The notes under the pieces: generated by a model
The model's input: the letters and a program-made list of their open reading frames with translations, nothing else
The model's database searches: none
What the model was told of the DNA's origin: nothing
Translations under genes and position numbers: made by a program
Source: a virus
IMG/VR virus record: IMGVR_UViG_3300040770_000189
Location: 1 to 36,969 of that record
Direction: 5' to 3' (one strand)
DNA: 36,969 bases
Part shown: one piece after another, positions 1-36,969 of the stretch
Layout of the letters: each line of letters opens with the position of its first letter
Position numbering within the stretch: position 1 is the first letter of the stretch

Positions 1-55
1 ATTCATTTGTCGCGTTTTTAGCTACATTAAAGCGACCAACCCAGCCTATATTTTC
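1..55. repeat. 55-nt exact copy of 36915..36969 (circular-assembly overlap)
   Basis: Bases 1-55 match 36915-36969 base for base. The sheath reading frame is continuous across the junction (691 + 488 nt = 1179 nt = 393 codons). Confidence 0.9.
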
Positions 56-5082: not shown

Positions 5083-6749
5083 TTACTTTCACGAATTAAA
5101 TTATATATTGTTTCAAAATAATCAAAATCTTTTTCGATTAAACGTGTAGGGTTTTTAAAAACTTCTGTAAACCACATCGTTAGTATTTCAGAAGACCCTT
5201 CGCGATTGTAATATTTACCAATGTAAGGTTCAATAAAATTGTCTTTCTTGGTAACTTCCGACCAGCCGTAAGCCTTATTTCCTGTAACATTCCGCAAAGC
5301 TTCAACTGTATCGTTAGCCGTTCGCCTATTGTAAAATTCCATTATACGCGCGTGGAGTTCAGGCCTGTCGTGTTCTAAAAAGTGACCAAGTTCATGAAGA
5401 ACTGTTTCAGTTCCGTCTGAAGGCGATAAAGTCACCCTATTATAAACCCCGCTTGCGTAACTAGCGCGAACTTTTTTCTTTATATAAACGTTTACAGACT
5501 TTTTTAAAGGTTGCCATTTATTAGAAATAAAACCGCTAAATTTTTCAAGCTTAGGCTTCATTTTTAAATAAGAAGCGTCAAATTCACCATTCAAAGAAAC
5601 AAAGCTTAAAGGTTCAATTGGATTATCTACCTTTAAAATATTAATAATTTCGGCTTCAGCTTTTCTAAGCAAGCTTTCTTTTTTTGTTACTAGCCTATTT
5701 CTAAGTTTTACCTGATCATTGAATTTTAAAACACGCGCTGAATATTCCTCGCGGTTTTTTCTGAAGTCAATCTTATTAATTTCTGCTATCTCAATTTTCT
5801 GTTCAGCTATTATTTTTTGAAGTTGAATTTCAACTTCTTTTGCTTCTTTTATGAATGTAATGTTTTTAATTTTTTCGCCAGCCATTTCGGCGCTTTGTTG
5901 TGTAATTGGTAATGCTTCAGGAACTTCAGGAACCGGAACTTTTGGCGCTCTCGGTTTTCTTGGCTTGACAATTTTAACTTCAGGGACAAAAGGCAAATCG
6001 AAATTTTTTCCAAGCGCTACTTTATAACGCTGATCAACTTTTAAATAAGGGTGAATGTCTTCGCGAAAAATAATTTTGTCTTTTCCTGAATTCATTTTAA
6101 ACAGTTCAGGAATAGGGTCAAAAGTCCTTTTTGGGTCTGTTTCCTGTTCTTCGTTTTCTTCAAGTTGTTCAGTTGTGCAACGACAATTCCAATCGTTAGG
6201 CGGGAAATAATCGTTCCAAAACTTATCACCTACAGCAAAAACAACTTCGTCAAGGTCTTTGTGTTGCTCCCTAACGCGCTGATCACCTATAGTAATATAT
6301 TTTAATAAAGGAAATATTTCTTTGTTTTCTTGTATGTCGTTCCATTGCCTAGCGCTGGAAGCCTGACTTAATGCGGTATTATATTCAGTGTTTAGCCAAT
6401 TTTTATTATAAGTTTCGAATATCTCACTAGCATACTTTTTGAACTCGCTAAAAGGAATTTTATCTTTTCCAGCAAATAAGAAATTACTCATATCGTTGAC
6501 CTGTTGAAATGTCTTGGCGCCCGAAAAAACAGCTATATTCTTTTCAAATCCGGCCATAATAAGACCCGCTTCAGTAGAAGTGTCAAAATCTGAATAAGTA
6601 CCGCCAAACCCATCAAAAACAGCCTTATTCAAGCGCGCTTTAATATCGTTATACAACCCAACAGGCAAAACTTCACGCGAAATTGAACCGCCGTAAAGGT
6701 CATTTATTATCTTTTCAATTTCTTCGTCTGTATAGTCTAGGCCGTTCAA
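5079..6749 (-). CDS. MuF/SPP1 gp7-like minor head protein fused to an HExxH metallopeptidase-like C-terminal domain
   Basis: MuF core: YITIGDQRVREQHKDLDEVVF...FWNDYFPPNDWNCRCT. This is followed by a Pro-rich linker (PRKPRAPKVPVPEVPEALP), a coiled coil, and VLHELGHFLEH (HELGH encoded at 5382-5396). Confidence 0.8.
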   Translation of the reverse strand: MNGLDYTDEEIEKIINDLYGGSISREVLPVGLYNDIKARLNKAVFDGFGGTYSDFDTSTEAGLIMAGFEKNIAVFSGAKTFQQVNDMSNFLFAGKDKIPFSEFKKYASEIFETYNKNWLNTEYNTALSQASSARQWNDIQENKEIFPLLKYITIGDQRVREQHKDLDEVVFAVGDKFWNDYFPPNDWNCRCTTEQLEENEEQETDPKRTFDPIPELFKMNSGKDKIIFREDIHPYLKVDQRYKVALGKNFDLPFVPEVKIVKPRKPRAPKVPVPEVPEALPITQQSAEMAGEKIKNITFIKEAKEVEIQLQKIIAEQKIEIAEINKIDFRKNREEYSARVLKFNDQVKLRNRLVTKKESLLRKAEAEIINILKVDNPIEPLSFVSLNGEFDASYLKMKPKLEKFSGFISNKWQPLKKSVNVYIKKKVRASYASGVYNRVTLSPSDGTETVLHELGHFLEHDRPELHARIMEFYNRRTANDTVEALRNVTGNKAYGWSEVTKKDNFIEPYIGKYYNREGSSEILTMWFTEVFKNPTRLIEKDFDYFETIYNLIRESK

Positions 6750-8758: not shown

Positions 8759-8766
8759 CAAATATA
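8759..8766 (-). promoter_or_regulatory. Bacteroidota-type -7 box TATATTTG
   Basis: Exact TAnnTTTG on the minus strand, 16 nt upstream of the ATG at 8742 and just downstream of a terminator-like hairpin. Confidence 0.4.
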
Positions 8767-9259: not shown

Positions 9260-9267
9260 CAAATATA
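9260..9267 (-). promoter_or_regulatory. Bacteroidota-type -7 box TATATTTG
   Basis: Exact TAnnTTTG on the minus strand, in the 51-nt gap after the terminase stop and 32 nt upstream of the ATG at 9227. Confidence 0.4.
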
Positions 9268-12409: not shown

Positions 12410-13924
12410 CTAAAAAGGGAATTTCTTTTGTTCCGGTTCTTTTGGGTCAGGTCTTACGTATTTGGCCGGTTCTAGTCCATTCTTATAAGAAGAAGTTGTT
12501 CTTAAATTAACATAATAACCGCGCGTTTTATGTCCATTTATTCGCTGGACGTCCGCAATAAAACCAAGCTGAACCATTGATTTTCCAATAAAACGAGAGT
12601 TTAAAGGCTTACCGCCGAATTTATCCGATAAGGTTAAAATTATATCCGGCAAGCTATAAAATTGGCCTGAAGTGTCGCTTATTTCAAAACACTGTTTAAT
12701 TAAATCTTTTTCAAGGTCTGAAATTTCAAAAGTTTTATTTGCCAAGTCGCGCGAAGCCATTTCTTCAGCTGTTAAACTTTGATTATATTCGGGGTCGTGG
12801 TACAAAGAATAGGCTTGCGACCATACGGCGTGAATATCAACTTCGGTTTTGTAATTCCAATTTATATCAATAACGTTAACACAAAGCCAGCGTGTATTTT
12901 CTGTATCTGTTAAAAATTCATTTTTATTTGTAGAGCCAAAGAAATTCGTTCGCCTTGGCTGTTCCTCGGCGTCTACAGCGTAAGCTTTTCTTTCTTTGAT
13001 GCTAGTCATTGAAATAATACTTTTTAAGTGATTTACTTCAATATTTGAAAGCGAAGCTAGTTCTTCAAGATTATAAATGAAATTTTCGCTAAAACTAAAA
13101 TAAGTGTCTTTGTTGTCTCTAATCGGTGCTTCAGTATAATATTTTGATCCAAAAGGGTTCAAAAATCTAATAAAAGTACTTTTTCCTTTTTCCTGTTTTT
13201 CTCCTACGAAAACATAAACGAAACGATTTTCAACGCCATAAAGCGCGCAACCTATACAGCGGACTAGCATTTTTCTAAATTGCGTAACGTGAAAATCTTG
13301 GTCAGTAGTAGTTACAAAATTTGCTAAGTTTCCGATGTGATCAATATCACGTTCCCAAGCTGGTAACGCTTCAAAATAATCAATAAAAGGGTTGTATGTA
13401 TCGACAAAATCAGAACGAAGCAAAGACTTAACTTTATCAATTGAAAAGTTAAATCTTACGTGTTGCAATTTTCTGTATAAGCTGTCGACGTTAAGTTTTT
13501 GATACTCGCTTTCAGGCTGGTTTTTTGGTCTGTATTCGCTTCTTTGCGTAACTTCATTTTTTACAAATTCCCAATTCTTACGAAGGAAATTTTCAACCTT
13601 GTAAATTTCAGGCTTTTCGTCAATTCCGAAGTCGTCTTTGTTAGCTTCAAAAACTCTTACAAAAACCGCGCGAACTTTGTCCATTGAAAAATAAAATCTT
13701 TCGCAAAGGTGCTTTATATCTGTTTCAGTCCAATTCCGGCCGGCCTTATTTACAGCGTGAATGAAAGAGTAAATTTCGCGCCAATTGTCCTTTTCTTGGT
13801 CTGTTCTTGCTTGTTGTACTTCGGGCGTTTCGTCAAATTCTACATATTTTGCTGACTGAATAAAGTCGTTTTTAATAAAATTTTCAGGTGTTATTTTTTT
13901 TTCTTGATCTTGACTTTTCTCCAT
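12410..13924 (-). CDS. VirE-family P-loop helicase (primase-associated, SF3-like)
   Basis: Walker A VFVGEKQEKGKSTFIRFL plus ...NLEEL...FFGSTN.. fits the virulence-associated protein E pattern. ATGA-coupled to the primase gene upstream. Confidence 0.75.
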   Translation of the reverse strand: MEKSQDQEKKITPENFIKNDFIQSAKYVEFDETPEVQQARTDQEKDNWREIYSFIHAVNKAGRNWTETDIKHLCERFYFSMDKVRAVFVRVFEANKDDFGIDEKPEIYKVENFLRKNWEFVKNEVTQRSEYRPKNQPESEYQKLNVDSLYRKLQHVRFNFSIDKVKSLLRSDFVDTYNPFIDYFEALPAWERDIDHIGNLANFVTTTDQDFHVTQFRKMLVRCIGCALYGVENRFVYVFVGEKQEKGKSTFIRFLNPFGSKYYTEAPIRDNKDTYFSFSENFIYNLEELASLSNIEVNHLKSIISMTSIKERKAYAVDAEEQPRRTNFFGSTNKNEFLTDTENTRWLCVNVIDINWNYKTEVDIHAVWSQAYSLYHDPEYNQSLTAEEMASRDLANKTFEISDLEKDLIKQCFEISDTSGQFYSLPDIILTLSDKFGGKPLNSRFIGKSMVQLGFIADVQRINGHKTRGYYVNLRTTSSYKNGLEPAKYVRPDPKEPEQKKFPF

Positions 13925-14972: not shown

Positions 14973-15295
14973 AGCTCTATAATTTTAAATAGTTCTTTGT
15001 ATTGTGGTGCTTTAATGTCTGAAATAATAATTTGGTTAAATGGTGAAGGGTAAAAATTCTTAATACCGTAAAAGCTTGAATCGTTGCCAAATTCAATCGC
15101 TCTAAAAGGCTGGTTAGTGCTGAATCTACCTCTAAAATACATATTTAGAACTATTCTGAAATAGTCAGGTATATAAATACAAATGGTTTCGTCTATTCCG
15201 TTATTTTCGTGTTTAACGTACCAAATTGATTTTCTAACGTCTTCAATTATAACTTCAATTTCTTCGTAACTAAATCTTTTCATTTTTCTTTTCAT
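14969..15295 (-). CDS. hypothetical protein (108 aa)
   Basis: ORF with coupled boundaries (TAATG upstream, ATGA downstream). No motif recognised. Confidence 0.5.
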   Translation of the reverse strand: MKRKMKRFSYEEIEVIIEDVRKSIWYVKHENNGIDETICIYIPDYFRIVLNMYFRGRFSTNQPFRAIEFGNDSSFYGIKNFYPSPFNQIIISDIKAPQYKELFKIIEL

Positions 15296-15789
15296 TAAAA
15301 TTTATATCCTATTTTTAAAAAACCGCTGTATCTCATTTCGTTGGGGTAATCGTAAAACTCGAAATCGCTTCTATAATCGTAAGTAGAACGAAGGCCAACA
15401 AAAACTTTTTCTGTTAATTTAAAATCAATTCCAGCTTCAACGCCAGCGGTCGGAAAAATTGCTTTTCTTGAAATAAGTCCAAGGCGGCCACCGGCATAGT
15501 AACGAATGCTTTCAAAATAACCTGAAGTAAAAGACAAGCCAAAAGCACCGGTAAAGTCTGTATAACCGTCTTTTAAGGCTGAAAAATTAGTTACTGAAGC
15601 GCGAACGTAAACTTCACTAACAGTTTCAATTTCTAAGCCAATGCAAAGGCCTTTTTCCTTATAGCTGGCCGAAGGATCAACAAGGACGGAAACGGCGAAA
15701 AATTGAGTTTTATTTAATCTAAAATTAGATTGTGAAAACCCTAGTAAGGTAAAAAATAAAGCTATTAAAATAATTTTTTTGTTGTACAT
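15295..15789 (-). CDS. secreted outer-membrane beta-barrel protein (OmpX/Lom-size)
   Basis: Signal peptide MYNKKIILIALFFTLLGFSQ, alternating hydrophobic beta-strand pattern with many Gly/aromatic residues, and a C-terminal ...GFLKIGYKF ending in Phe (beta-signal). Confidence 0.65.
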   Translation of the reverse strand: MYNKKIILIALFFTLLGFSQSNFRLNKTQFFAVSVLVDPSASYKEKGLCIGLEIETVSEVYVRASVTNFSALKDGYTDFTGAFGLSFTSGYFESIRYYAGGRLGLISRKAIFPTAGVEAGIDFKLTEKVFVGLRSTYDYRSDFEFYDYPNEMRYSGFLKIGYKF

Positions 15790-15805
15790 TTTTTTTAGAT
15801 TTAGA

Positions 15806-15823
15806 AGCGCCCGAAGGCGCTGG
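15806..15823 (-). other. GC-rich stem-loop AAGCGCCCGAAGGCGCTG (copy 2 of 2); UUCG tetraloop in mRNA sense
   Basis: Identical over 18 nt to 16729-16746. In minus sense it reads AGCGCC-UUCG-GGCGCU. It lies 6 nt after the stop at 15830 and is not followed by a U tract. Confidence 0.6.
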
Positions 15824-15829
15824 TTAATA

Positions 15830-16711
15830 TTAGAATTCCAGATTGGTAACGTGTTCTTGAATTTTTCTTATATATTCAATTTTTTCTTCATCTTCTTGTA
15901 TTTTTAAATCTTCAAGCAAATCAGGATCAATAAATTCTTTTATCGCTTCGCGACATAATTCCATTAATTTTTTAGGCTCCACGGCGTCAAGTTCTACCTG
16001 ACCGAGACCGCCCCAATTCGCTGTTCTGCTGTCTCCTACTTTTGCGGGTGCTGGTGGCAATTTCCAAGCTATAACTTGATCTTTCATCAATGCAAACCTT
16101 CTAACTTCTACAGGACAACCGAAACGGGTAAAGTTTTCTTCAATACTTCTTGGTATGTCTTCGCCTGAGGGATCATAATCACCAAAATACAATATAATAG
16201 GCGTTTTTCCGCTTCTTTTTGTTTTTTGGAATCTTTCTTTCGCTTCATTTAAAAAAGTTAAAGAGGGGTAACCTTTACAGGGTGCAAGTGCAACGCTGTA
16301 TTCCTCACAAGGCTTTTGAAAAACTCCCTGTAAAGCTTTCTTTTCAATCCAAACTTCGGGGACGTAAATTTGATTTTCCCAAGGGTTTTTTCTATAGTTT
16401 TTAACATAGTAGTTAATTGCCCAAACTCCATATTCAAACTTTTCTTCAACAGTGGTTTCTTCAGCTTTTGTTTCTCCTAATACTTCGCGGTCGTGGTCGC
16501 TAAACGCTTCAAAACTAACTAAACCCTTCCAACGTGCTTCGATCATACCGGCGACAACTCTTTTGTAATGTTGCATTGAATTTGTCATTCCAAGTCCTAC
16601 AAGTTGATAATGCAAACCGCGTATTGTTAAAACTCCTTCTTCGTATCTGCTAACTACTTCAATAGAGTTTTGAATGATCCAATTTCTTGTAAATCTGTCT
16701 TTTTGTTTCAT
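15830..16711 (-). CDS. stand-alone Topo VI subunit A / Spo11-like protein (5Y-CAP + Toprim; Topo mini-A-like)
   Basis: Motifs in canonical order: IRGLHY (R31..Y35), WIEKKA (E123), CKGYPS, LYFGDYDPSGEDI (D178, D180), QVELDAV. 293 aa. Confidence 0.65.
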   Translation of the reverse strand: MKQKDRFTRNWIIQNSIEVVSRYEEGVLTIRGLHYQLVGLGMTNSMQHYKRVVAGMIEARWKGLVSFEAFSDHDREVLGETKAEETTVEEKFEYGVWAINYYVKNYRKNPWENQIYVPEVWIEKKALQGVFQKPCEEYSVALAPCKGYPSLTFLNEAKERFQKTKRSGKTPIILYFGDYDPSGEDIPRSIEENFTRFGCPVEVRRFALMKDQVIAWKLPPAPAKVGDSRTANWGGLGQVELDAVEPKKLMELCREAIKEFIDPDLLEDLKIQEDEEKIEYIRKIQEHVTNLEF

Positions 16712-16721
16712 TTTGTTTCAA

Positions 16722-16746
16722 TTTATAAAAGCGCCCGAAGGCGCTG
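16722..16746 (-). terminator. rho-independent terminator (stem-loop copy 1 of 2)
   Basis: In minus sense AGCGCC-UUCG-GGCGCU is followed by UUUUAUAAAU. It lies 5 nt after the stop at 16752. Confidence 0.6.
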
Positions 16747-16751
16747 AATTA

Positions 16752-17009
16752 TTATTTAGTAAATAGACTTATTTTTTGCTTTATTCCTTGTAATTTGTCG
16801 TAAGAATCGAATTTATAGCCTTCGTGGTTCCAATGATAGGCTCCGGCCTGTTTTGTTGTTCTATGAATCATATTAAGGCCTTTTATCTCTAAATAATCGC
16901 CTTCATTTTTAAGTAATTTAATTGTTTTTTCTTGTGCTTTTGTAAGGTTTTCAGCTTTTACAGTTTCTGTTAGTCCTGTTGATGTCTTAATTGTAAATGT
17001 AATTTCCAT
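16752..17009 (-). CDS. hypothetical protein (85 aa; start moved to the Met at 17009)
   Basis: The track ORF's first 37 codons run over a promoter-like gap. The ATG at 17009 lies 31 nt downstream of a TATATTTG box. Confidence 0.5.
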   Translation of the reverse strand: MEITFTIKTSTGLTETVKAENLTKAQEKTIKLLKNEGDYLEIKGLNMIHRTTKQAGAYHWNHEGYKFDSYDKLQGIKQKISLFTK

Positions 17010-17040: not shown

Positions 17041-17048
17041 CAAATATA
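17041..17048 (-). promoter_or_regulatory. Bacteroidota-type -7 box TATATTTG
   Basis: Exact TAnnTTTG on the minus strand, between the stop at 17095 and the ATG at 17009. Confidence 0.4.
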
Positions 17049-17094: not shown

Positions 17095-17505
17095 TTAAAA
17101 AGGACAATCGAAATTTTCACCGCTAAAACCCGCGCCTTTGCTGGCGTTTTGTCTATTTGTTAAAATTGCCATATTCCAAATATGGTAACCGTGTATATTA
17201 CATCGCCGGTCAATTGTAGCGTTTTGACCGCGACGGCCTTTTTTTACTATGTACTGATTTATTTCGCAAAATCTTCTGAATTCTTCAAGGGTTACAGAAT
17301 TTTCTATATTTCTATTTCTTGCATTCGCTTTAAATTGTGTGTACCTAACTCCAACAGGGTCTTCTTTTCTTCTTTTTCTTTGATAATGCTTATGACATAA
17401 CCCGCCCAATTTTGCGACGGGTTTATTATTACAGCCATTAGCACAACAGAAACGTCCGGCTTCTTTTTTATTCTGACTTAATACCATAGCCAAGGAATCT
17501 TTCAA
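17095..17505 (-). CDS. HNH/Endo VII-superfamily nuclease-like protein with an N-terminal zinc-ribbon-like motif
   Basis: CCANGCNNKPVAKLGGLCHKHYQRKRR (GLCxxHYxR pattern), then ATIDRRCNIHGYHIWNMAILTNRQNASKG (sIDR....GY...N.....N..K). Confidence 0.45.
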   Translation of the reverse strand: MKDSLAMVLSQNKKEAGRFCCANGCNNKPVAKLGGLCHKHYQRKRRKEDPVGVRYTQFKANARNRNIENSVTLEEFRRFCEINQYIVKKGRRGQNATIDRRCNIHGYHIWNMAILTNRQNASKGAGFSGENFDCPF

Positions 17506-18034: not shown

Positions 18035-18784
18035 TTAGTGTTTTACGATTTTACTTTTGTCAACAGGTTCTTCCATTCTGAAAGCTTTGAAAACGTTAAG
18101 CAATGCAAAAACATCTTTTTCGCAATATGTCGCGATCCTGTGCGTTTCTCCATCGTGAAAAGCTTTTGAGACTAAAGAACCGTTAAGGTCGTCTTTTGGT
18201 GTTTCAATTCCAAAAGCCATACAAATGGCTGGTAATCCAGCCGAACCCGTTCCGCCTAGCTTCCATATTTCGTGAGTGTCAAGGTTTGTATTTTCCCAAG
18301 GCTTCAGTCCGGCGGTGTCTAAAATTGACGGAATAACTATTCTATTTATAAGCATTCTTTTAGCAATATAAGGAAAATCAAAACCTTTTCCGTAATGGGC
18401 GCAAAGCTTCGCTAATGCGACCGAAGAACAAAAAGCTTCTAGGTCTGTTTTGAACATTTTTAAAAGATCGCCTTCGTTGTTTACCGCATAAGAACGAATT
18501 AAAAATTGTCCTTGGTACATAAACCCGACCGAAATACAAACGACGCGCGAAAATTCAGGATAAAGGCCGGCTTCTTTTTGCCAAAGTTCAGCAAAGTAAT
18601 CATAATAATTTTTTACGCTTTCACCGGCTTTTGGTTCGTTAGGCGCTTCGCTTCTAAATTTGAATTTATAAATCCATTCGCTTTGCACGTTTTTAGGCGC
18701 TTGGTAAAGTTCCAGCCAATTCGGCGCGGTTTCAATATCTAAGAAAAGGACGGTTTCAATTTTTACTTCATTTAAGATTTTCAT
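18035..18784 (-). CDS. 3'-5' exonuclease (DnaQ fold, PolB-exonuclease-like)
   Basis: Exo I FLDIETAP, Exo II HYGKGFDFPYIAKRM, Exo III YCEKDVFALLNVF. Confidence 0.75.
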   Translation of the reverse strand: MKILNEVKIETVLFLDIETAPNWLELYQAPKNVQSEWIYKFKFRSEAPNEPKAGESVKNYYDYFAELWQKEAGLYPEFSRVVCISVGFMYQGQFLIRSYAVNNEGDLLKMFKTDLEAFCSSVALAKLCAHYGKGFDFPYIAKRMLINRIVIPSILDTAGLKPWENTNLDTHEIWKLGGTGSAGLPAICMAFGIETPKDDLNGSLVSKAFHDGETHRIATYCEKDVFALLNVFKAFRMEEPVDKSKIVKH

Positions 18785-18785
18785 A

Positions 18786-19052
18786 TTATTTTGATTTAGT
18801 TAATTGAATTGAATAGAATTTAAAGTTGTAATTTTTAGCTATTGAATTTAATAATTTTTCTACCTCTTTGTTTTTGAATCCAGCTGTATAAATTATAGTT
18901 TCGTAAAAAGGCGCTTCTTTAATTATCTTCTCTTTTATTTCGTGAATGTTTTTAATTTCGTTAAAATTAATTTCTAACCCTTTACGAATTAAATTGCAAA
19001 GCGTTGATTTTCCTGAACCCTGTTTGCCTGTTAAATAGATTATTGTATTCAT
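18786..19052 (-). CDS. mini P-loop protein (88 aa, Walker A only)
   Basis: IIYLTGKQGSGKSTL at the N-terminus. No clear Walker B seen. Confidence 0.5.
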   Translation of the reverse strand: MNTIIYLTGKQGSGKSTLCNLIRKGLEINFNEIKNIHEIKEKIIKEAPFYETIIYTAGFKNKEVEKLLNSIAKNYNFKFYSIQLTKSK

Positions 19053-19349: not shown

Positions 19350-20840
19350 TTATTTTTGTTTTAGATTATACATTTTTTCCATTTTTTCAACCCATAATTC
19401 AGGGTGTTTGTAATTTTTTAAAATAGCATAATCAGAAAGTTTTAAATTCTGATTTAGCGCAATTAGTCTAATTATCCAGCCTTGTTTATAGCCTTTTATT
19501 TCTCTTACTTGTTCTAGTTGTTCAAGTGTCAAGTCGCCCCAAGCTTGGCCAATCATTTCAGGCGGTAAAAGATTATAATTTTGTACTTCCATAAATTCGC
19601 CTTCAGCAAGTGATTTTTCCTTTTTTGGGAATACATAACCGCAATGCTTGCATTTAGGCGCCGGCGCTGGAATCATACAGCCACAACCTTGTTTAAAATT
19701 AACGTCAACTTTGTCTTCAGGGCATTCTTTAACCGGTGCAATACCTATTTTTTCACTTTTTTTATGTGAAAGTTTCCAAGTTCGTTCTTGTTCCCAAAAA
19801 CCAAGCGCGTAAACATTTCCGCCCATATCTAAAATATTGAAGTGTTCCTTTTGTAATTTTCCAGCAACGCCTATTAATTCACTTGGAGTTATTCGCCCAC
19901 CCCTACCGCACATTTGAAGCCAAAGAGGTAAAGAAAGCGTTACGCGGTTAACTATTACGGTTTCTATTGTCCATTCGTCAAAGCCTGTAGTCGCAATGTC
20001 AACGTTGCAAAGAATCTGAAAAAGGCCAAGTTTAAAAGCTTTAAAAATTTCGTCACGCTGTCTTTTTGGTGTGGTTCCGTCTACGTGTACGGCTGAAATT
20101 CCGGCTTCATTAAAAGCGCGCGTTACATTTTTGGAATGCTCTACATTTACATTAAAACAAATTGCTTTTGTGCTAGGTGTAAATCTTTTGTATTTTTCAA
20201 CAACACCGTCATAAAGCTTTTTTTTGTCAAACATATCAAACATTTTTTTATTATCGTATTCATTCCCTTTTATGGCTAATTTTGAAGCGTCTACTTTTAC
20301 CGAATACGTAACGGCCGGAACAAGGAAGCCTTCTTTTATTAATTCGCCAATAGTAATCGTTTCAACTATATCGTCATAAATATCTTCCAGCTGGGTCATT
20401 TTTCCCGTTCTTGCTGGCGTGGCCGTTGCTCCTATTATGAAAACGCCGGCTTCTTTGTAAGTTTTAATAACAGGGTCAAAAATTTGCTTGTGACATTCGT
20501 CAATAATAAGAAGATTAATTTCAGGAAAAACACGGCGCTTTAAAGTCTGAACCGTTGCAACGTAACAAGAAGCGTTTCTTTTCATAGAACGTCCGGCCGT
20601 AATTATCGCCGGATTTAGACCATAATCAACTAATTTATTTTTCGCCTGTTCTAACAGTTCAGTTCTGTCAACTGCTATCATAACGACAAAACCATTGTCG
20701 ACGCTTTCGCGTGCAATGTCTGCAAAGGTCACCGTTTTACCCGAACCCGTAGGCGAACACAAAACAACGGCTTTTAAATCGTTAGAAAAAGAATTTCTTA
20801 TTTGTATTTTTGCCTTTACTTGGTAGTGTCTTAATTTCAT
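19350..20840 (-). CDS. SF2 DEAD/DEAH-box helicase with a C-terminal zinc ribbon
   Basis: Motif I CSPTGSGKT, motif II LLIIDECH, motif III GATATP, motif VI QMCGRGGR, then CPEDK..GCGC..CKHCGY. The start is moved to the Met at 20840, which is ATGA-coupled to the upstream gene. Confidence 0.8.
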   Translation of the reverse strand: MKLRHYQVKAKIQIRNSFSNDLKAVVLCSPTGSGKTVTFADIARESVDNGFVVMIAVDRTELLEQAKNKLVDYGLNPAIITAGRSMKRNASCYVATVQTLKRRVFPEINLLIIDECHKQIFDPVIKTYKEAGVFIIGATATPARTGKMTQLEDIYDDIVETITIGELIKEGFLVPAVTYSVKVDASKLAIKGNEYDNKKMFDMFDKKKLYDGVVEKYKRFTPSTKAICFNVNVEHSKNVTRAFNEAGISAVHVDGTTPKRQRDEIFKAFKLGLFQILCNVDIATTGFDEWTIETVIVNRVTLSLPLWLQMCGRGGRITPSELIGVAGKLQKEHFNILDMGGNVYALGFWEQERTWKLSHKKSEKIGIAPVKECPEDKVDVNFKQGCGCMIPAPAPKCKHCGYVFPKKEKSLAEGEFMEVQNYNLLPPEMIGQAWGDLTLEQLEQVREIKGYKQGWIIRLIALNQNLKLSDYAILKNYKHPELWVEKMEKMYNLKQK

Positions 20841-21040
20841 TTTTTTGGAAATATTAAAGTATAGAAAGAAACTAAAACACCAATAAAACCCGAAAATATA
20901 CAAATGATAAAAATTCTCTTTTTAAATCTTTTTGGCGTTCTTAAATCTTTTAATTTTAGTTCTATTAGAAAAACTAAATAATTTCCAATTCCCGACAAGA
21001 CCCAAAACAGTAATAATAATAAATAATTGAAATACTCCAT
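20837..21040 (-). CDS. small membrane protein (67 aa), first gene of the leftward operon
   Basis: MEYFNYLLLLLFWVLSGIGNYLVFLI...IFIICIFSGFIGVLVSFYTLIF. The start at 21040 lies 23 nt downstream of a TATATTTG box. Confidence 0.45.
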   Translation of the reverse strand: MEYFNYLLLLLFWVLSGIGNYLVFLIELKLKDLRTPKRFKKRIFIICIFSGFIGVLVSFYTLIFPKK

Positions 21041-21063: not shown

Positions 21064-21071
21064 CAAATATA
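21064..21071 (-). promoter_or_regulatory. leftward -7 box TATATTTG
   Basis: Exact TAnnTTTG on the minus strand in the 119-bp divergent gap. Confidence 0.45.
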
Positions 21072-21741: not shown

Positions 21742-22404
21742 ATGAGTGATTTTATCCCACAGGGTTACACACAGCCGACAAGCGCCGGCGGGTTTACTAA
21801 ATTAGAAACAGGAGATAACAAGATTAGAATTCTTTCTTCACCTTTGCTTATGTGGCTGGAATGGAGAGACGGAAAGCCAAAACGCCACGTTTACAAGCAA
21901 GGCGACCCAGCACCGAAAAAAGGCGAAGGACAAAAAGACAGTGTTAAACACGCTTGGGGTTTAATAATTTGGAATTACAAGACTGAAAAAATTGAAGTTT
22001 GTGAACTTGACAAAGCTGGCGTTATAGCAATGATTTTGTCATTGTCTGAAAAACCGGCTTGGGGTCACCCTAAGAATTACGATATAGTAATTACAAAAAA
22101 AGGGTCGGGAATGGACACGGAATATATTACAGCACCGGAACCGCCAAGCGCCGTTTCCGACGTAATTATTGAAGCTTACACCGAAAACCCTGTTGACTTG
22201 TCACAGTTATTTAATGAGGGCGGAAATCCCTTTTTGTCTAAAGCTACGGCTGGAAATCCATCAAACCCAAACACCCTACCAGCACAATCAAGCGCCAAGG
22301 TCGTGACGCCTGAAAATTGGGTTGCTGGCGATCTTATTCCGGCGGGTTATGAAATAAACCCTATTGGGGGCGGTGATATTGTAAAGAAAAAACTACCTTT
22401 TTAA
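21742..22404 (+). CDS. putative single-stranded DNA-binding protein
   Basis: GFTKLETGDNKIRIL...WGLIIWNY..EKIEVCEL...YDIVITKKGSGMDTEY resembles phage OB-fold SSBs. It has a flexible Pro/Ser/Asn-rich tail ending in KKLPF (compare the bacterial SSB tip IPF). Confidence 0.4.
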   Translation: MSDFIPQGYTQPTSAGGFTKLETGDNKIRILSSPLLMWLEWRDGKPKRHVYKQGDPAPKKGEGQKDSVKHAWGLIIWNYKTEKIEVCELDKAGVIAMILSLSEKPAWGHPKNYDIVITKKGSGMDTEYITAPEPPSAVSDVIIEAYTENPVDLSQLFNEGGNPFLSKATAGNPSNPNTLPAQSSAKVVTPENWVAGDLIPAGYEINPIGGGDIVKKKLPF

Positions 22405-22415
22405 TAACTAATAAG

Positions 22416-22441
22416 GGCGCGCGTAAAAACCGCGCCTTTTT
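22416..22441 (+). terminator. rho-independent terminator
   Basis: Stem GGCGCG, 9-nt loop, CGCGCC, followed by T5. Confidence 0.7.
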
Positions 22442-22462
22442 ATAAATCTAAATCAAAAAGAA

Positions 22463-22666
22463 ATGTCGAATAAAATTACTGTTAATGATTTTTTTATACT
22501 GTTGGTTATTTTTTTAACAGTATTGTTTTTTGCTTTAAAAATAACTGAAAAAATATATTGTTCTTGGTGGCTTATTTTATGCCCTTTATTAATCCCAAGC
22601 TGTTTTTACTTTTTTGTTTTTATTTTAGCTTTTATATATCTATATTCTAAATCTAAAACAAAGTAA
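22463..22666 (+). CDS. small membrane protein (67 aa, two TM segments)
   Basis: Hydrophobic segments FFILLVIFLTVLFFAL and CSWWLILCPLLIPSCFYFFVFILAFIYLY. Confidence 0.45.
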   Translation: MSNKITVNDFFILLVIFLTVLFFALKITEKIYCSWWLILCPLLIPSCFYFFVFILAFIYLYSKSKTK

Positions 22667-22668
22667 TT

Positions 22669-22860
22669 ATGTATGCAGTTATTAAATTGACCGGAAAATT
22701 TTACGCCAAGGACGTGACGGAACTTGATGAATTTGAAATTATAGAATACGTTGAATCTTTTATTAATGAAGGAAGTCCCGTGACTTTTTGCGACGAATTG
22801 CAAGACGCTGAAGAACTTTTTGGCGTTAGTATTGAACTTATTGAAAAAGAAAATAACTAA
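22669..22860 (+). CDS. small strongly acidic protein (63 aa)
   Basis: 16 Asp/Glu versus 4 Lys/Arg by count. Confidence 0.5.
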   Translation: MYAVIKLTGKFYAKDVTELDEFEIIEYVESFINEGSPVTFCDELQDAEELFGVSIELIEKENN

Positions 22861-22878
22861 TTTAAAAATAAATTAAAA

Positions 22879-24153
22879 ATGGCAAAGGAAACACAAATTA
22901 AGAGAATAAAAATACAAAATTTTAAAGGTTTAAAAGCTTTTGAAGGCGAAATTTTAGGAAAAGACGTTTATTTAACAGGCCGAAACGCCAGCGGAAAAAC
23001 TTCTTTTATTGACGCTGTTTGGCTGGCTTTGACAGGTAAAAATATACCACCTAAGCCGGTAACAACAGGCGCTAAAAAAGGCGTTATTGAAGTTGAACTT
23101 TCAGACGGTTACATTGTTAGGACAAAATTAGCCGTAGGAAAAACACCTGTTCAATTTGAAATTGAAAATTTAAACGCTGTTGACGAAAAAGACAAATTTG
23201 TAAAAGCGCCCCGAACTTGGTTAAATGAAAGAATAGGCGTTATTGACTTTGATGTAAACGATTTTTTTAAAATGTCTGACGCTAAACAAGTGGAATATTT
23301 TTGCAAGATAACAGGCGTTGACGTTTACGAACAGGATCAGCAAATTGAAGAACTTACAGACAGCCGAAAATTTGATAAAAAGAAACTTATTGAGTTTCAA
23401 ACGCAAACCGGTTTTTTTGACCCTGAAGACGCTGAAAAAGATTTAATAGACATTGTTTCTTTGTCTAGCGAAATAAGTTCTTTAAAAGAATCTGAGCGCG
23501 TAAAAATGGAAACTTGGGACAAAGTGACTGACGGAGTATCTACGCGAGAAACTACTATTAAAGCGCTAAAAGCCGAAATTGAGGCCAAACTTAGTCAAAT
23601 AGAATCTATTGAGGTAGAAATTAAAAGTGGTTATGATTGGCTTAAAGACGAAAATAATAAACCAATTCCGAATAATAATCTTCAAGAAAAAGAAGCTTTA
23701 TTTCAAAATAGCAAGGTTATCAATGAAAGAATAGCCTTGGCCAAAACTTACAAGGAAGCCGACGACAGAATTGAAAAGTTAGAAAACGCAATATCTGAAG
23801 CAACTGAAGGAATAACCGCCCACAAGGACGCAAAAGCCGTTATAATTTCGGAAAAGATAAATATTGAAGGCTTATCTTATGATGTTGAAAATGAATGTTT
23901 TTTATTTAACGGCCTACCATTTGATAGAACACAAATAAACACCGCTTCGCAATTAATAGCCGGCCTTAAAATAGGCGCTTCACTTCTTAATGAAGTTAGA
24001 ATTTTAAAAATAGACGCTTCTTTAATAGACAAAGAAAACTTTGCAAAAGTACAAGAGTGGTCAAATTCTGAGGGTATAGAATTATTTGTTGAACTTGTTG
24101 ACCGCGAAGCGGGCGCTTTAAAGATTGAAATTGAAGAAAATATAAATGATTAG
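22879..24153 (+). CDS. SMC/Rad50/SbcC-like ATPase with a coiled-coil insert (424 aa)
   Basis: N-terminus IKRIKIQNFKGLKAFEGEILGKDVYLTGRNASGKTSFIDAVWLALTG (Walker A), a central coiled coil, a signature-like NTASQLIAGLKIG, and a Walker B-like RILKIDASLID. Confidence 0.65.
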   Translation: MAKETQIKRIKIQNFKGLKAFEGEILGKDVYLTGRNASGKTSFIDAVWLALTGKNIPPKPVTTGAKKGVIEVELSDGYIVRTKLAVGKTPVQFEIENLNAVDEKDKFVKAPRTWLNERIGVIDFDVNDFFKMSDAKQVEYFCKITGVDVYEQDQQIEELTDSRKFDKKKLIEFQTQTGFFDPEDAEKDLIDIVSLSSEISSLKESERVKMETWDKVTDGVSTRETTIKALKAEIEAKLSQIESIEVEIKSGYDWLKDENNKPIPNNNLQEKEALFQNSKVINERIALAKTYKEADDRIEKLENAISEATEGITAHKDAKAVIISEKINIEGLSYDVENECFLFNGLPFDRTQINTASQLIAGLKIGASLLNEVRILKIDASLIDKENFAKVQEWSNSEGIELFVELVDREAGALKIEIEENIND

Positions 24154-27346: not shown

Positions 27347-28208
27347 GGCTTAAAAATGTAAATGTTGTATTTTCTTCGTCTAATTTCATATATCCAGCGT
27401 CAGAAATATAAAATTCGTTAATTGAAGAGTACGGAAAAAGTCCGTATTTCGCCGAAGCCGAAACAAGAACGGGTTCTTCAACTCCTTCAATTCCCTGTAA
27501 AAAATCAGTTAATTTTGTTAAAATTATTTCACCGTTAAACTCTAAATTTCGTAAAAACAAACGAACAGCATTTTGGACGGGTTCGTTTTCAGTACCGTCT
27601 AAACGCGCCCCGTAAACGTCCAAAACTAAAGGGTCGTAATAAATTGTATAATTAACTTTGAAGTCGTCAGGAACGCGCGAAATAATTATTAAACGCGTTC
27701 CGGCGTACTTTATAGCTTCGGCGTAATTTTTAAAAGCTGTTAACTGTAAATCTGACAAGGGCGCTAAATCTTTGTTTAAGTCTTCAGTTGCAACTTTTAT
27801 TTTTAAGCGTCCTTCTATTTCTTCAATAGCGCTTTGTTTAATTATTAAGCTTGCTATAATTTCGGCCTGAAGTATTCCGGTATTGTCATAAACGCCCATT
27901 TCAGTAAGAGGAAAACCAAATTGAAATTCAAGCATTTTCTGTCGATACCAAGGTTTAGAGCCTATTTTATTTAATAAAATTAACTGTTCTATCTCTACTT
28001 TAAACAGGTCAAAAACCTGTTCAATTGTCCATATACCAAAAGCGCAAATATATACCCATAAACGCCAAATAGCCACCTTTGAAGTACTTGTTAAATTTAA
28101 CAACGTGTTTTGCTCGCTTTCAGTTAAAACTTCAAGCGCTGACAATGAAGCGGTCGTTTGCTTTTTCTGAAGTATAATTTCCTGTATTTCGTTTAACGTT
28201 CTTGACAT
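27336..28208 (-). CDS. baseplate wedge protein (in the position of gpJ / Mu gp47)
   Basis: Synteny and size (290 aa) only. Confidence 0.35.
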   Translation of the reverse strand: MSRTLNEIQEIILQKKQTTASLSALEVLTESEQNTLLNLTSTSKVAIWRLWVYICAFGIWTIEQVFDLFKVEIEQLILLNKIGSKPWYRQKMLEFQFGFPLTEMGVYDNTGILQAEIIASLIIKQSAIEEIEGRLKIKVATEDLNKDLAPLSDLQLTAFKNYAEAIKYAGTRLIIISRVPDDFKVNYTIYYDPLVLDVYGARLDGTENEPVQNAVRLFLRNLEFNGEIILTKLTDFLQGIEGVEEPVLVSASAKYGLFPYSSINEFYISDAGYMKLDEENTTFTFLSREL

Positions 28209-36426: not shown

Positions 36427-36969
36427 TTAAGATATTTTTACGGCAAAGCCAATATTTACTTCGATTTTTCTTGCAACACCAACAGGAACTATTTTAAGAG
36501 AAAGAACTATTTTTGAAGAACTAATTACGTCCTGAGAAGGATTAATTTCGACTTCAAAAGTTGAAACTTCGCCGTCTTTCTGCATAACCTCAAGACCTCG
36601 GCGCGCGTCATTTCTGAAGCTTGCAATTGTATCTTCAGTCAAAGTCCCGTTTTCATTAACGTATAAAGGGGCGTTTAAGCTTGGTAAAAGGAATTTTCTA
36701 CAAGAACGAACAGCCTTGTCGATAGTCCTATTATTTTCTATAAAAGCATAATCTGAAGCCGTATCTGTTGACGTAGGCGAATCATTGAAGTAAGTTCCAG
36801 CGGTTCCTACGTGCTTTTTTATAAAGATATAACCTTTTGAATTTATAGCTTCAATAGCGCCTTCGCTTATCGTTTTTAAAAGTGTTCCGTCAGTAGACAA
36901 GGCCGGAACGTCGAATTCATTTGTCGCGTTTTTAGCTACATTAAAGCGACCAACCCAGCCTATATTTTC
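36427..36969 (-). CDS. contractile tail sheath protein, C-terminal part (continues from 1..691 through the circular junction)
   Basis: The track 'M' at 36900 is a TTG (Leu) codon inside an open frame that continues to 36969 (ENIGWVGRFNVAKNATNEFDVPA-LSTDG...). It is in frame with 1..691. Confidence 0.6.
   Translation of the reverse strand, partial: ENIGWVGRFNVAKNATNEFDVPALSTDGTLLKTISEGAIEAINSKGYIFIKKHVGTAGTYFNDSPTSTDTASDYAFIENNRTIDKAVRSCRKFLLPSLNAPLYVNENGTLTEDTIASFRNDARRGLEVMQKDGEVSTFEVEINPSQDVISSSKIVLSLKIVPVGVARKIEVNIGFAVKIS
36915..36969. repeat. 55-nt exact copy of 1..55
   Basis: See the feature at 1..55. Confidence 0.9.

Follow-up and report, generated by a model that had tools for sequence, protein, structure and literature searches.

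We identify, with very little doubt, the gene at the centre of this work as a member of Mini-A, a family of stand-alone homologues of the type IIB topoisomerase A subunit. The gene encodes a protein of 293 residues, is flanked by two identical hairpins (hp1 upstream, hp2 downstream) and lies in a viral DNA of 36,969 nucleotides (nt), all of which is called the window here (IMG/VR record IMGVR_UViG_3300040770_000189, positions 1 to 36,969). The full reading that we put forward joins membership in the Mini-A family to tyrosine-linked cleavage by a homodimer, a role in phage replication or recombination, and hairpins that form the boundary of a gene cassette; taken as a whole, it seems to us slightly better than an even bet.

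The assignment to Mini-A is made because the protein matches PHROG 6247 over nearly its full length, because homologues are found in 84 GenBank phage records (many of them annotated 'DNA topoisomerase') and in 6125 representative clusters at 50% identity, with 1840 close relatives, and because the protein fits the published definition. That definition (Takahashi et al. 2020, PMC7671362) describes A-subunit homologues of type IIB topoisomerases that are encoded by viruses, have ~300 residues and are built of 5Y-CAP and Toprim domains only, with R..Y, E and DxDxxG motifs and an xWELDAL box, and with the B subunit absent nearby. The hosts of phages with Mini-A homologues include Bacteroides, Alistipes, Elizabethkingia, Flavobacterium, Cellulophaga, Brevundimonas, Pseudomonas, Salmonella (Chi-like phages), Xylella, Roseobacter, Microbacterium, Curtobacterium and a cyanobacterium. 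An earlier note on this DNA had thus recognized the family correctly; its rating of novelty does not stand, the family being already named, large and annotated (PHROG 6247).

The open reading frame (ORF) and all the motifs reported from the sequence in that note were recovered at the residues given there, namely T29-I-R31-G-L-H-Y35, W-I-E123-K-K-A, K146-G-Y-P-S150, F-G-D178-Y-D180-P-S-G183-E-D-I and V239-E-L-D-A-V244, and the Toprim domain also carries P-A-K224-x-x-D227-S-R229. In an alignment of 86 diverse Mini-A members (mean identity to the query ~33%), R31, Y35, Y49, D72, E123, G147, S150, D178, D180 and G183 were invariant (86/86), a set that comprises both the Arg and Tyr of the R-x-x-(Y/F)-Y motif and the Toprim ligands of the E and DxDxxG motifs. 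Position 34 is Y, F or H across the family, with H before the catalytic Tyr in 12 of the 86. The xWELDAL box (PMC7671362), located at the dimer interface in Topo VI-A, reads QVELDAV at 238-244, with V replacing the W of the published 23-sequence panel; of the 86 relatives, 47 have V and 31 have W at position 239, which is followed by E240 (85/86), L241 (81/86), D242 (83/86), A243 (85/86) and then L, I or V. The stand-alone A-subunit identity proposed earlier is therefore borne out by PHROG 6247 and by the invariant Tyr/Arg/Glu/DxD set.

The AlphaFold2 (AF2) model of the protein (pLDDT 95.4) shows the expected architecture, an N-terminal helical, winged-helix-like domain followed by an alpha/beta, Toprim-like domain. 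Its N-terminal helices span residues 9-21, 30-39 (carrying Y35) and 46-61, and the N-terminal domain is modelled as a winged helix with the Tyr in its N-terminal half, as expected of a 5Y-CAP domain. A search of BFVD returned one match, a fragment of the same family, a single-sequence search of the PDB with the window protein returned nothing relevant, and longer Mini-A relatives scanned for domain fusions showed none that were informative. Weak matches to the uncharacterised Pfam domain DUF7281 were seen in 11 of the 86 relatives; this domain may define a further Toprim-type family akin to Mini-A and JetD.

Comparison of the family profile with the PDB gave M. jannaschii Top6A (1D3Y) as best match, with an E-value of 0.023 over the DxD region, and a sub-threshold stretch of the alignment sets TLRQLYY on TLREAYY of 1D3Y. 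When 65 full-length bacterial and DPANN Top6A sequences taken from genome loci served as reference, hhalign gave a probability of 92.8% and an E-value of 3.9e-7 over residues 128-232, and greedy extension of the alignment pairs R31/Y35 with the R/Y of REAYY and E123 with the Toprim Glu; these 65 sequences are mutually too similar (effective number of sequences ~2) for sensitive comparison of the CAP domain. A hidden Markov model of Top6A searched against Mini-A sequences (hmmsearch) produced weak Toprim matches only. Pfam TP6A_N was matched by 6 of the 86 relatives (best E 0.027) and TOP6A-Spo11_Toprim likewise by 6, a recurrence that, at the level of sequence profiles, is far above chance among 24,736 models; the window protein itself fell below threshold with both. 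The best Foldseek match of the model was M. mazei Topo VI-A (9o7o_A, probability 0.99, E 7.9e-3), with other Toprim proteins (T7 primase, RecR) lower in the list. Similarity to Topo VI-A, by profile and by fold, is weak and reaches significance only in the Toprim half; in the profile and fold comparison suggested in the earlier note, Topo VI-A was the top match for that half, and the N-terminal half gave nothing significant. The proposed equivalence of Y35 and the Topo VI-A tyrosine draws on motif-level alignment, the winged-helix fold and the published analysis, not on a significant superposition.

The first 55 bases of the window (1-55) are repeated exactly at 36915-36969. This terminal direct repeat shows that the assembly, with its 36,914 unique bases, is circular or terminally redundant, which backs the earlier claim of a complete genome. 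Its GC content is 34.8%. Pfam scans identified a Mu-like head module (portal, Mu F, gp36), a terminase, a sheath, a tape measure and an amidase/endolysin, and the window is fully syntenic with Flavobacterium phage vB_FspM_lotta8-1 (Winoviridae, Pippivirus; hereafter lotta8-1), with 75% nucleotide identity in patches. On these grounds we classify it as the circular, 36.9-kb genome of a Flavobacteriia-type phage, and the Mini-A gene as virus-encoded. Rfam and tRNA scans gave no matches.

That the phage encodes no B subunit, as had been claimed, holds at Pfam sensitivity: in 41 ORFs, comprising every likely gene of at least 120 residues and four shorter ones, no GHKL/Bergerat, HATPase, Topo VI-B or transducer domain was detected, a scan that would miss a very divergent fold. 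Mini-A thus has no GHKL subunit nearby, as its definition has it, and lacks the B subunit encoded alongside Topo VI-A. The tail-sheath gene (DUF2586) crosses the contig junction, and the scan took in the ORF at 36427-36900, which is only its C-terminal part (matching DUF2586 and Phage_sheath_1C), and not the part across the junction. The ATPases of the window are a SNF2/DEAD helicase (19350-20903), a VapE-like helicase (12410-13924), the terminase, a tiny P-loop protein (18786-19052) and an SMC/RecF/Rad50-like ATPase (22879-24153, (+)). The last was considered as a dedicated partner of Mini-A and rejected, because it is also present in lotta8-1, which lacks Mini-A. This ATPase, of 424 residues and conserved in lotta8-1, forms with an SSB-like protein (phrog_1192) a divergently transcribed pair (21742-24153, (+)); it resembles SbcC as well, matches AAA_23, AAA_15 and SMC_N, and also resembles the defence ATPases LmuB, AriA, GajA and PtuA.

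The distribution of Mini-A was examined in related phages (loci designated by L numbers), which were retrieved through the primase and onto which the backbone genes were then mapped; a single-protein search of viral contigs had given one locus only, and an alignment-based search was needed. On the minus strand of the window the genes run in the order SNF2 helicase, small ORFs, 3'-5' exonuclease, orf120, HNH endonuclease, a promoter-like gap, an 85-residue ORF, hp1, Mini-A, hp2, orf164, orf108, primase (BT4734-like N-terminus), VapE helicase and VRR-NUC. Nucleotide homology with L213, L214 and L219 ends at window position 17003. In L213, the closest relative (primase 89% and VapE 92% identical), Mini-A is absent, homology resumes at hp2 (15826), and one hairpin, AAGCGCCTTAGGGCGCTT, directly precedes orf164; hp2 is orthologous to this hairpin. 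L214 (= L048) also lacks Mini-A and has one identical hairpin followed by a 26-residue ORF and then orf108, without orf164. In L219 (IMGVR_UViG_3300040770_000140, 5898-6405), two hairpins surround an unrelated Cys-rich ORF of ~150 residues in place of Mini-A. The hairpin orthologous to hp1 is the only one in L214/L048 and the first of the two in L219. Mini-A is likewise absent from lotta8-1, L218 and L220, the last two of which have no hairpin motif. Conversely, L215/L133, L224, L002 and L003 carry Mini-A and no hairpins, with the gene just upstream of the primase in L215/L133, adjoining it in L003 and separated from it by four small ORFs in L002. The ~150-residue ORF of L219, which occupies the same locus as Mini-A in the window, has a C-terminal CxxC...CxxC cluster.

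The relatives without Mini-A (L213, L214, L218, L219, L220 and lotta8-1) all share the replication backbone. Judged from these comparisons, Mini-A is an accessory gene, patchily distributed in this phage lineage and dispensable for the shared replication machinery. Hairpin and leader together are, on the same comparative evidence, a conserved boundary element of a small hypervariable locus and not specific to Mini-A; the hairpins are not part of a Mini-A system, because in relatives they also stand around or ahead of unrelated genes, and the Mini-A homologues nearest to this one lack them. A 'hairpin + gene' unit gained or lost at such a boundary would leave exactly the layout seen in the window. 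The idea of an acquired cassette put forward in the earlier note gains support here, since sister phages share the backbone without Mini-A and have a single hairpin at that place.

The 18-mer AAGCGCCCGAAGGCGCTG occurs in the window in exactly two copies with 0 mismatches (chance expectation 0.01), and no further copies were found at up to 3 mismatches. The two identical flanking hairpins had been described correctly; the downstream coordinates needed correction from 15806-15823 to 15805-15822, which places that copy 7 nt, not 6, after the stop. In mRNA sense each copy folds into a 6-bp stem with a UUCG loop and a free energy of -11 kcal/mol (z -2.8 and -3.9). Perfect GC-rich hairpins of 6 bp or longer number just three across the genome, two being hp1 and hp2; the third, GGCTGG-TAAT-CCAGCC, lies at 18227-18242 inside the 3'-5' exonuclease gene. 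Each of the two copies sits in a 40-nt spacer, hp1 between the small variable ORF and Mini-A and hp2 between Mini-A and orf164, and both spacers have the same layout, with a few AT-rich bases after the stop, the hairpin, a 15-17-nt A-rich leader and the next ATG. The tails of the upstream (UUUUAUAAAUU) and downstream (UUCUAAAUCU) copies both contain short U tracts. Coordinates of these and neighbouring features are given in Table 1.

Table 1. Features of the Mini-A locus, in window coordinates.
Feature	Position	Strand	Remarks
Mini-A gene	15830..16711	(-)	ATG start, 293 aa; PHROG 6247 'DNA topoisomerase', E 4.1e-62
N-terminal winged-helix (5Y-CAP-like) domain, residues 1-112	16376..16711	(-)	R31 (16619-16621), Y35 (16607-16609), Y49 and D72 invariant
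Toprim domain, residues 113-236	16004..16375	(-)	E123 (16343-16345), K-G-Y-P-S 146-150, D178-x-D180-P-S-G183 (16163-16180)
T2BI box V239-E-L-D-A-V244, Mini-A signature	15980..15997	(-)	motif defined in PMC7671362
hp1, upstream hairpin	16729..16746	(-)	sense CAGCGCC-UUCG-GGCGCUU, then UUAUAAAUU; 17 nt before Mini-A start
hp2, downstream hairpin	15805..15822	(-)	identical 18-mer; 7 nt after Mini-A stop
85-aa ORF, start of variable locus	16752..17009	(-)	unrelated small ORFs in its place in relatives
TATATTTG, Bacteroidota -7-type promoter-like motif	17041..17048	(-)	in 85-nt gap after HNH gene; conserved in L048
orf164, neighbouring cassette gene	15295..15789	(-)	behind hairpin in L213, absent in L214

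In the mechanism that we propose, Mini-A would be expressed with the early or middle replication genes (SNF2 helicase, 3'-5' exonuclease, HNH endonuclease, primase, VapE helicase and VRR-NUC) and would form a homodimer whose subunits meet at the (V/W)ELDA box and whose active sites are hybrid, as in Topo VI-A and Spo11. Y35, placed by R31, would attack the DNA backbone, with Mg2+ held by E123, D178 and D180, and the product would be a covalent 5'-phosphotyrosyl break that could be resealed without ATP. Such tyrosine-linked, Mg-dependent cleavage by a dimer is what we consider probable; cleavage by an A subunit alone has a precedent, because mouse SPO11 on its own makes covalent double-strand breaks in vitro (PMC11922746). 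The enzyme would act on DNA during phage replication or recombination, relaxing or resolving intermediates or making programmed breaks, and this role is offered only tentatively, at rather less than even chances. At the variable locus, each gene cassette is preceded by a conserved GC-rich UUCG hairpin and an A-rich leader, hp1 and hp2 being two such boundaries; the hairpins would probably act on RNA as a partial terminator or 3'-end stabiliser and would also supply short homology for the gain and loss of cassettes.

Several results weigh against this reading. The window protein itself matches no Pfam or NCBIfam model, the Foldseek TM-score to Topo VI-A is just 0.31, and the hhalign extension requires a 16-residue insertion after the tyrosine. 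The N-terminal domain alone, compared with the Top6A N-terminus by hhalign, reached a probability of 1% (not significant), and its Foldseek matches were generic winged helices (linker histone, Fur/Zur, RTP; E >= 0.7), none of them Topo VI-A. Archaeal Top6A alone is not known to cleave DNA. The U tracts of the hairpins are weak, and the RNA and recombination roles are putative. Lastly, 27 of the 86 relatives weakly match DUF2399 (the JetD type I model; best E 2.2e-6), against 6 for the Topo VI-A Toprim, so that by sequence the Mini-A Toprim stands no further from Wadjet JetD than from Topo VI-A; 5 relatives match JetD_C, and the window protein has a weak match to PADLOC JetD3 (E 0.0087, 32 residues at the DxD site). 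JetD/MksG lacks the catalytic tyrosine, works with JetABC and cuts DNA without a tyrosine. Mini-A could by analogy be a hydrolytic nuclease whose Toprim domain cuts without a covalent Tyr intermediate and degrades or damages host or competitor DNA, and its accessory status would fit such a role in host takeover or competition. We nonetheless hold this to be unlikely: R31 and Y35 are invariant in all 86 relatives, which would be unexpected were the Tyr dispensable, JetD is missing from the top 50 fold matches, in which Topo VI-A ranks first, no JetA, JetB or JetC gene was seen in the scanned ORFs, and the window protein matches neither DUF2399 nor JetD_C.

A different possibility is that Mini-A initiates replication by nicking a specific origin and priming rolling-circle or sigma replication, a published hypothesis for Asgard skuldviruses, which have no other replication gene, and one that the placement of the gene in the replication module would suit. 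We consider it very unlikely here: sister phages built on that helicase, exonuclease, HNH, primase, VapE and VRR-NUC backbone do without Mini-A, and nothing of similar size takes its place, the phage has its own primase/helicase pair, and the position of Mini-A relative to orf108 and the primase varies among relatives; since Mini-A is optional and sister phages replicate without it, its dispensability argues against an essential initiator role in this lineage. We likewise give very little credence to Mini-A being half of a conventional type IIB topoisomerase that pairs with an unrecognised B-like ATPase of phage or host for strand passage. The original Mini-A paper (Takahashi 2020, PMC7671362) left a 'Mini-B' open and the phage does carry the SMC/RecF/Rad50-like ATPase, yet no scanned ORF has a GHKL or transducer domain, that ATPase persists in lotta8-1 without Mini-A, the longer relatives show no informative fusions, and Mini-A lacks the N-terminal segment through which Top6A binds Top6B (Takahashi 2020, PMC7671362). 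It is improbable, in our estimate, that Mini-A is a self-sufficient, ATP-independent, Spo11-like maker of double-strand breaks that starts recombination-dependent replication or cripples host or rival DNA, and that recombination at the conserved UUCG stem-loop moves the gene, as a cassette bounded by hairpins, from one Flavobacteriia phage to another; in the replication version, the covalent ends would be processed by the Rad50/SbcC-like ATPase, the exonuclease and the VRR-NUC nuclease. A host-damage or counter-defence function is possible. For the hairpins, the alternative is that they are ordinary intrinsic terminators duplicated by chance, with no part in gene movement, which we regard as a substantial possibility somewhat short of even. 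Single copies of the 18-mer turn up in 44 unrelated viral contigs, where a run of U frequently comes after it in hairpin sense, as in intrinsic terminators; a gut clade of Bacteroides phages has another GC hairpin behind its Mini-A stop; and neither copy matches an Rfam family. In this genome, however, the motif is confined to the Mini-A locus, the borders of non-homologous inserts coincide with it in four related genomes, and the U tracts are short at both copies. Because of the 44 contigs and the gut-clade hairpin, an RNA-level role (terminator, attenuator or 3'-end stabiliser) is probably the simplest reading, and at that level the terminator explanation is compatible with the cassette-boundary reading that we prefer, the two differing solely on the recombination role. 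In the gut clade (L169-L212, IMG/VR 3300045988) the conserved GC hairpin, GCCGGGCGGGTTCCCGGC, lies 6-7 nt after the Mini-A stop, and in L182 and L186 a similar GC hairpin is also found upstream of Mini-A; this may be a convergent 3'-end element.

Around the cassette, the 85-residue ORF and orf164 have no family matches. The N-terminus of orf164 resembles a signal peptide (MYNKKIILIALFFTLLGFSQ) and its last residues are ...GYKF, features that hint at export or at a beta-barrel-like protein of the outer membrane, and at a possible moron; homologues (35-42% identity) are found in Flavobacterium phage MaF61, Winogradskyella phage Peternella_1 and Tenacibaculum phage JQ. The HNH/endonuclease VII-like gene (17095-17505, (-)), directly upstream of the variable locus, is kept in all relatives, and nuclease-stimulated recombination is a conceivable origin of the hot spot. 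The promoter-like motif TATATTTG in the gap behind it may be the promoter from which the small ORF, hp1, Mini-A, hp2 and orf164 are transcribed together. The exact octamer recurs on the gene-sense strand (-) at 8759-8766, 9260-9267, 21064-21071 and 28045-28052 as well as at 17041-17048, several of these in intergenic gaps, and the sites are possible candidate phage promoters; the motif TAnnTTTG showed no genome-wide enrichment (60 found vs 58 expected). In distant phages, as here, Mini-A lies in modules for replication or nucleotide metabolism; its neighbours in those phages include DNA polymerase, ligase, RecA-like and RecB-like proteins, ThyX, ribonucleotide reductase (RNR) and single-stranded DNA-binding protein (SSB), a setting that speaks for action in DNA metabolism. 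It often lies beside ThyX-like and other nucleotide-metabolism or DNA-modification genes (L130, L131, L232, L234, L235, L236), such neighbours including aGPT-Pplase2, a radical SAM 'photolyase' and a PLP enzyme in Pam3, and a kinase and MazG in Sano; JG054 belongs to the Queuovirinae. These hints point to a possible link between Mini-A and DNA-modifying phages; the window itself has no such genes.

Mini-A proteins are the only relatives of type IIB topoisomerases without any ATPase, and it has been suggested that Topo VI and Spo11 may have arisen from a form of this kind. The family was already known, named and annotated; what is added here is the presence/absence series and the hairpin-marked hot spot, which accounts for the two identical stem-loops at Mini-A. 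A natural series of this kind, in near-identical and hairpin-marked contexts, shows how the gene spreads and could guide knock-in and knock-out work. The member in the window does not alter the picture of Mini-A, nor does it by itself offer a better test case for the family's function than cultured phages in which the gene is already present.

Among known systems, the protein is closest to the Mini-A family, with which it shares length, two-domain make-up, catalytic residues, the ELDA box, viral origin and the lack of a GHKL partner; it differs in having V instead of W before ELDA (V being the commoner state among the 86 relatives), H instead of Y/F before the catalytic Tyr, Flavobacteriia-type phages as its host group, and identical flanking hairpins that other members lack. 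With Topo VI-A and Spo11 (TP6A_N + TOP6A-Spo11_Toprim; 1D3Y, 2ZBK, 9O7O) it has in common the Toprim E / DxD / P-x-K-x-x-D layout, the Arg-Tyr spacing of four residues in the winged helix and a Glu-containing box near the C-terminus; it is ~100 residues shorter, without the B-binding N-terminus and without a B subunit. JetD/MksG of Wadjet (DUF2399, JetD_C) has the same Topo VI-A-like Toprim and likewise needs no GHKL ATPase, and differs from Mini-A, whose Tyr and Arg are invariant and whose phage has no JetABC genes. The hairpin locus recalls the PeSL cassettes of T4-type phages (PMC2839356, PMC4122927), which belong to another phage and host group and have a promoter in the module; here none is evident, the 15-17 nt between hairpin and ATG being too few to hold one and the nearest promoter-like motif being the octamer at 17041-17048 upstream of the small ORF, and a single locus has one or two copies per genome. 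In both cases a short repeated stem-loop flanks variable, non-homologous genes that form a hyperplastic stretch between conserved ones in close relatives, and comparison of the window with L213, L214 and L219 places that stem-loop at the edges of the inserts.

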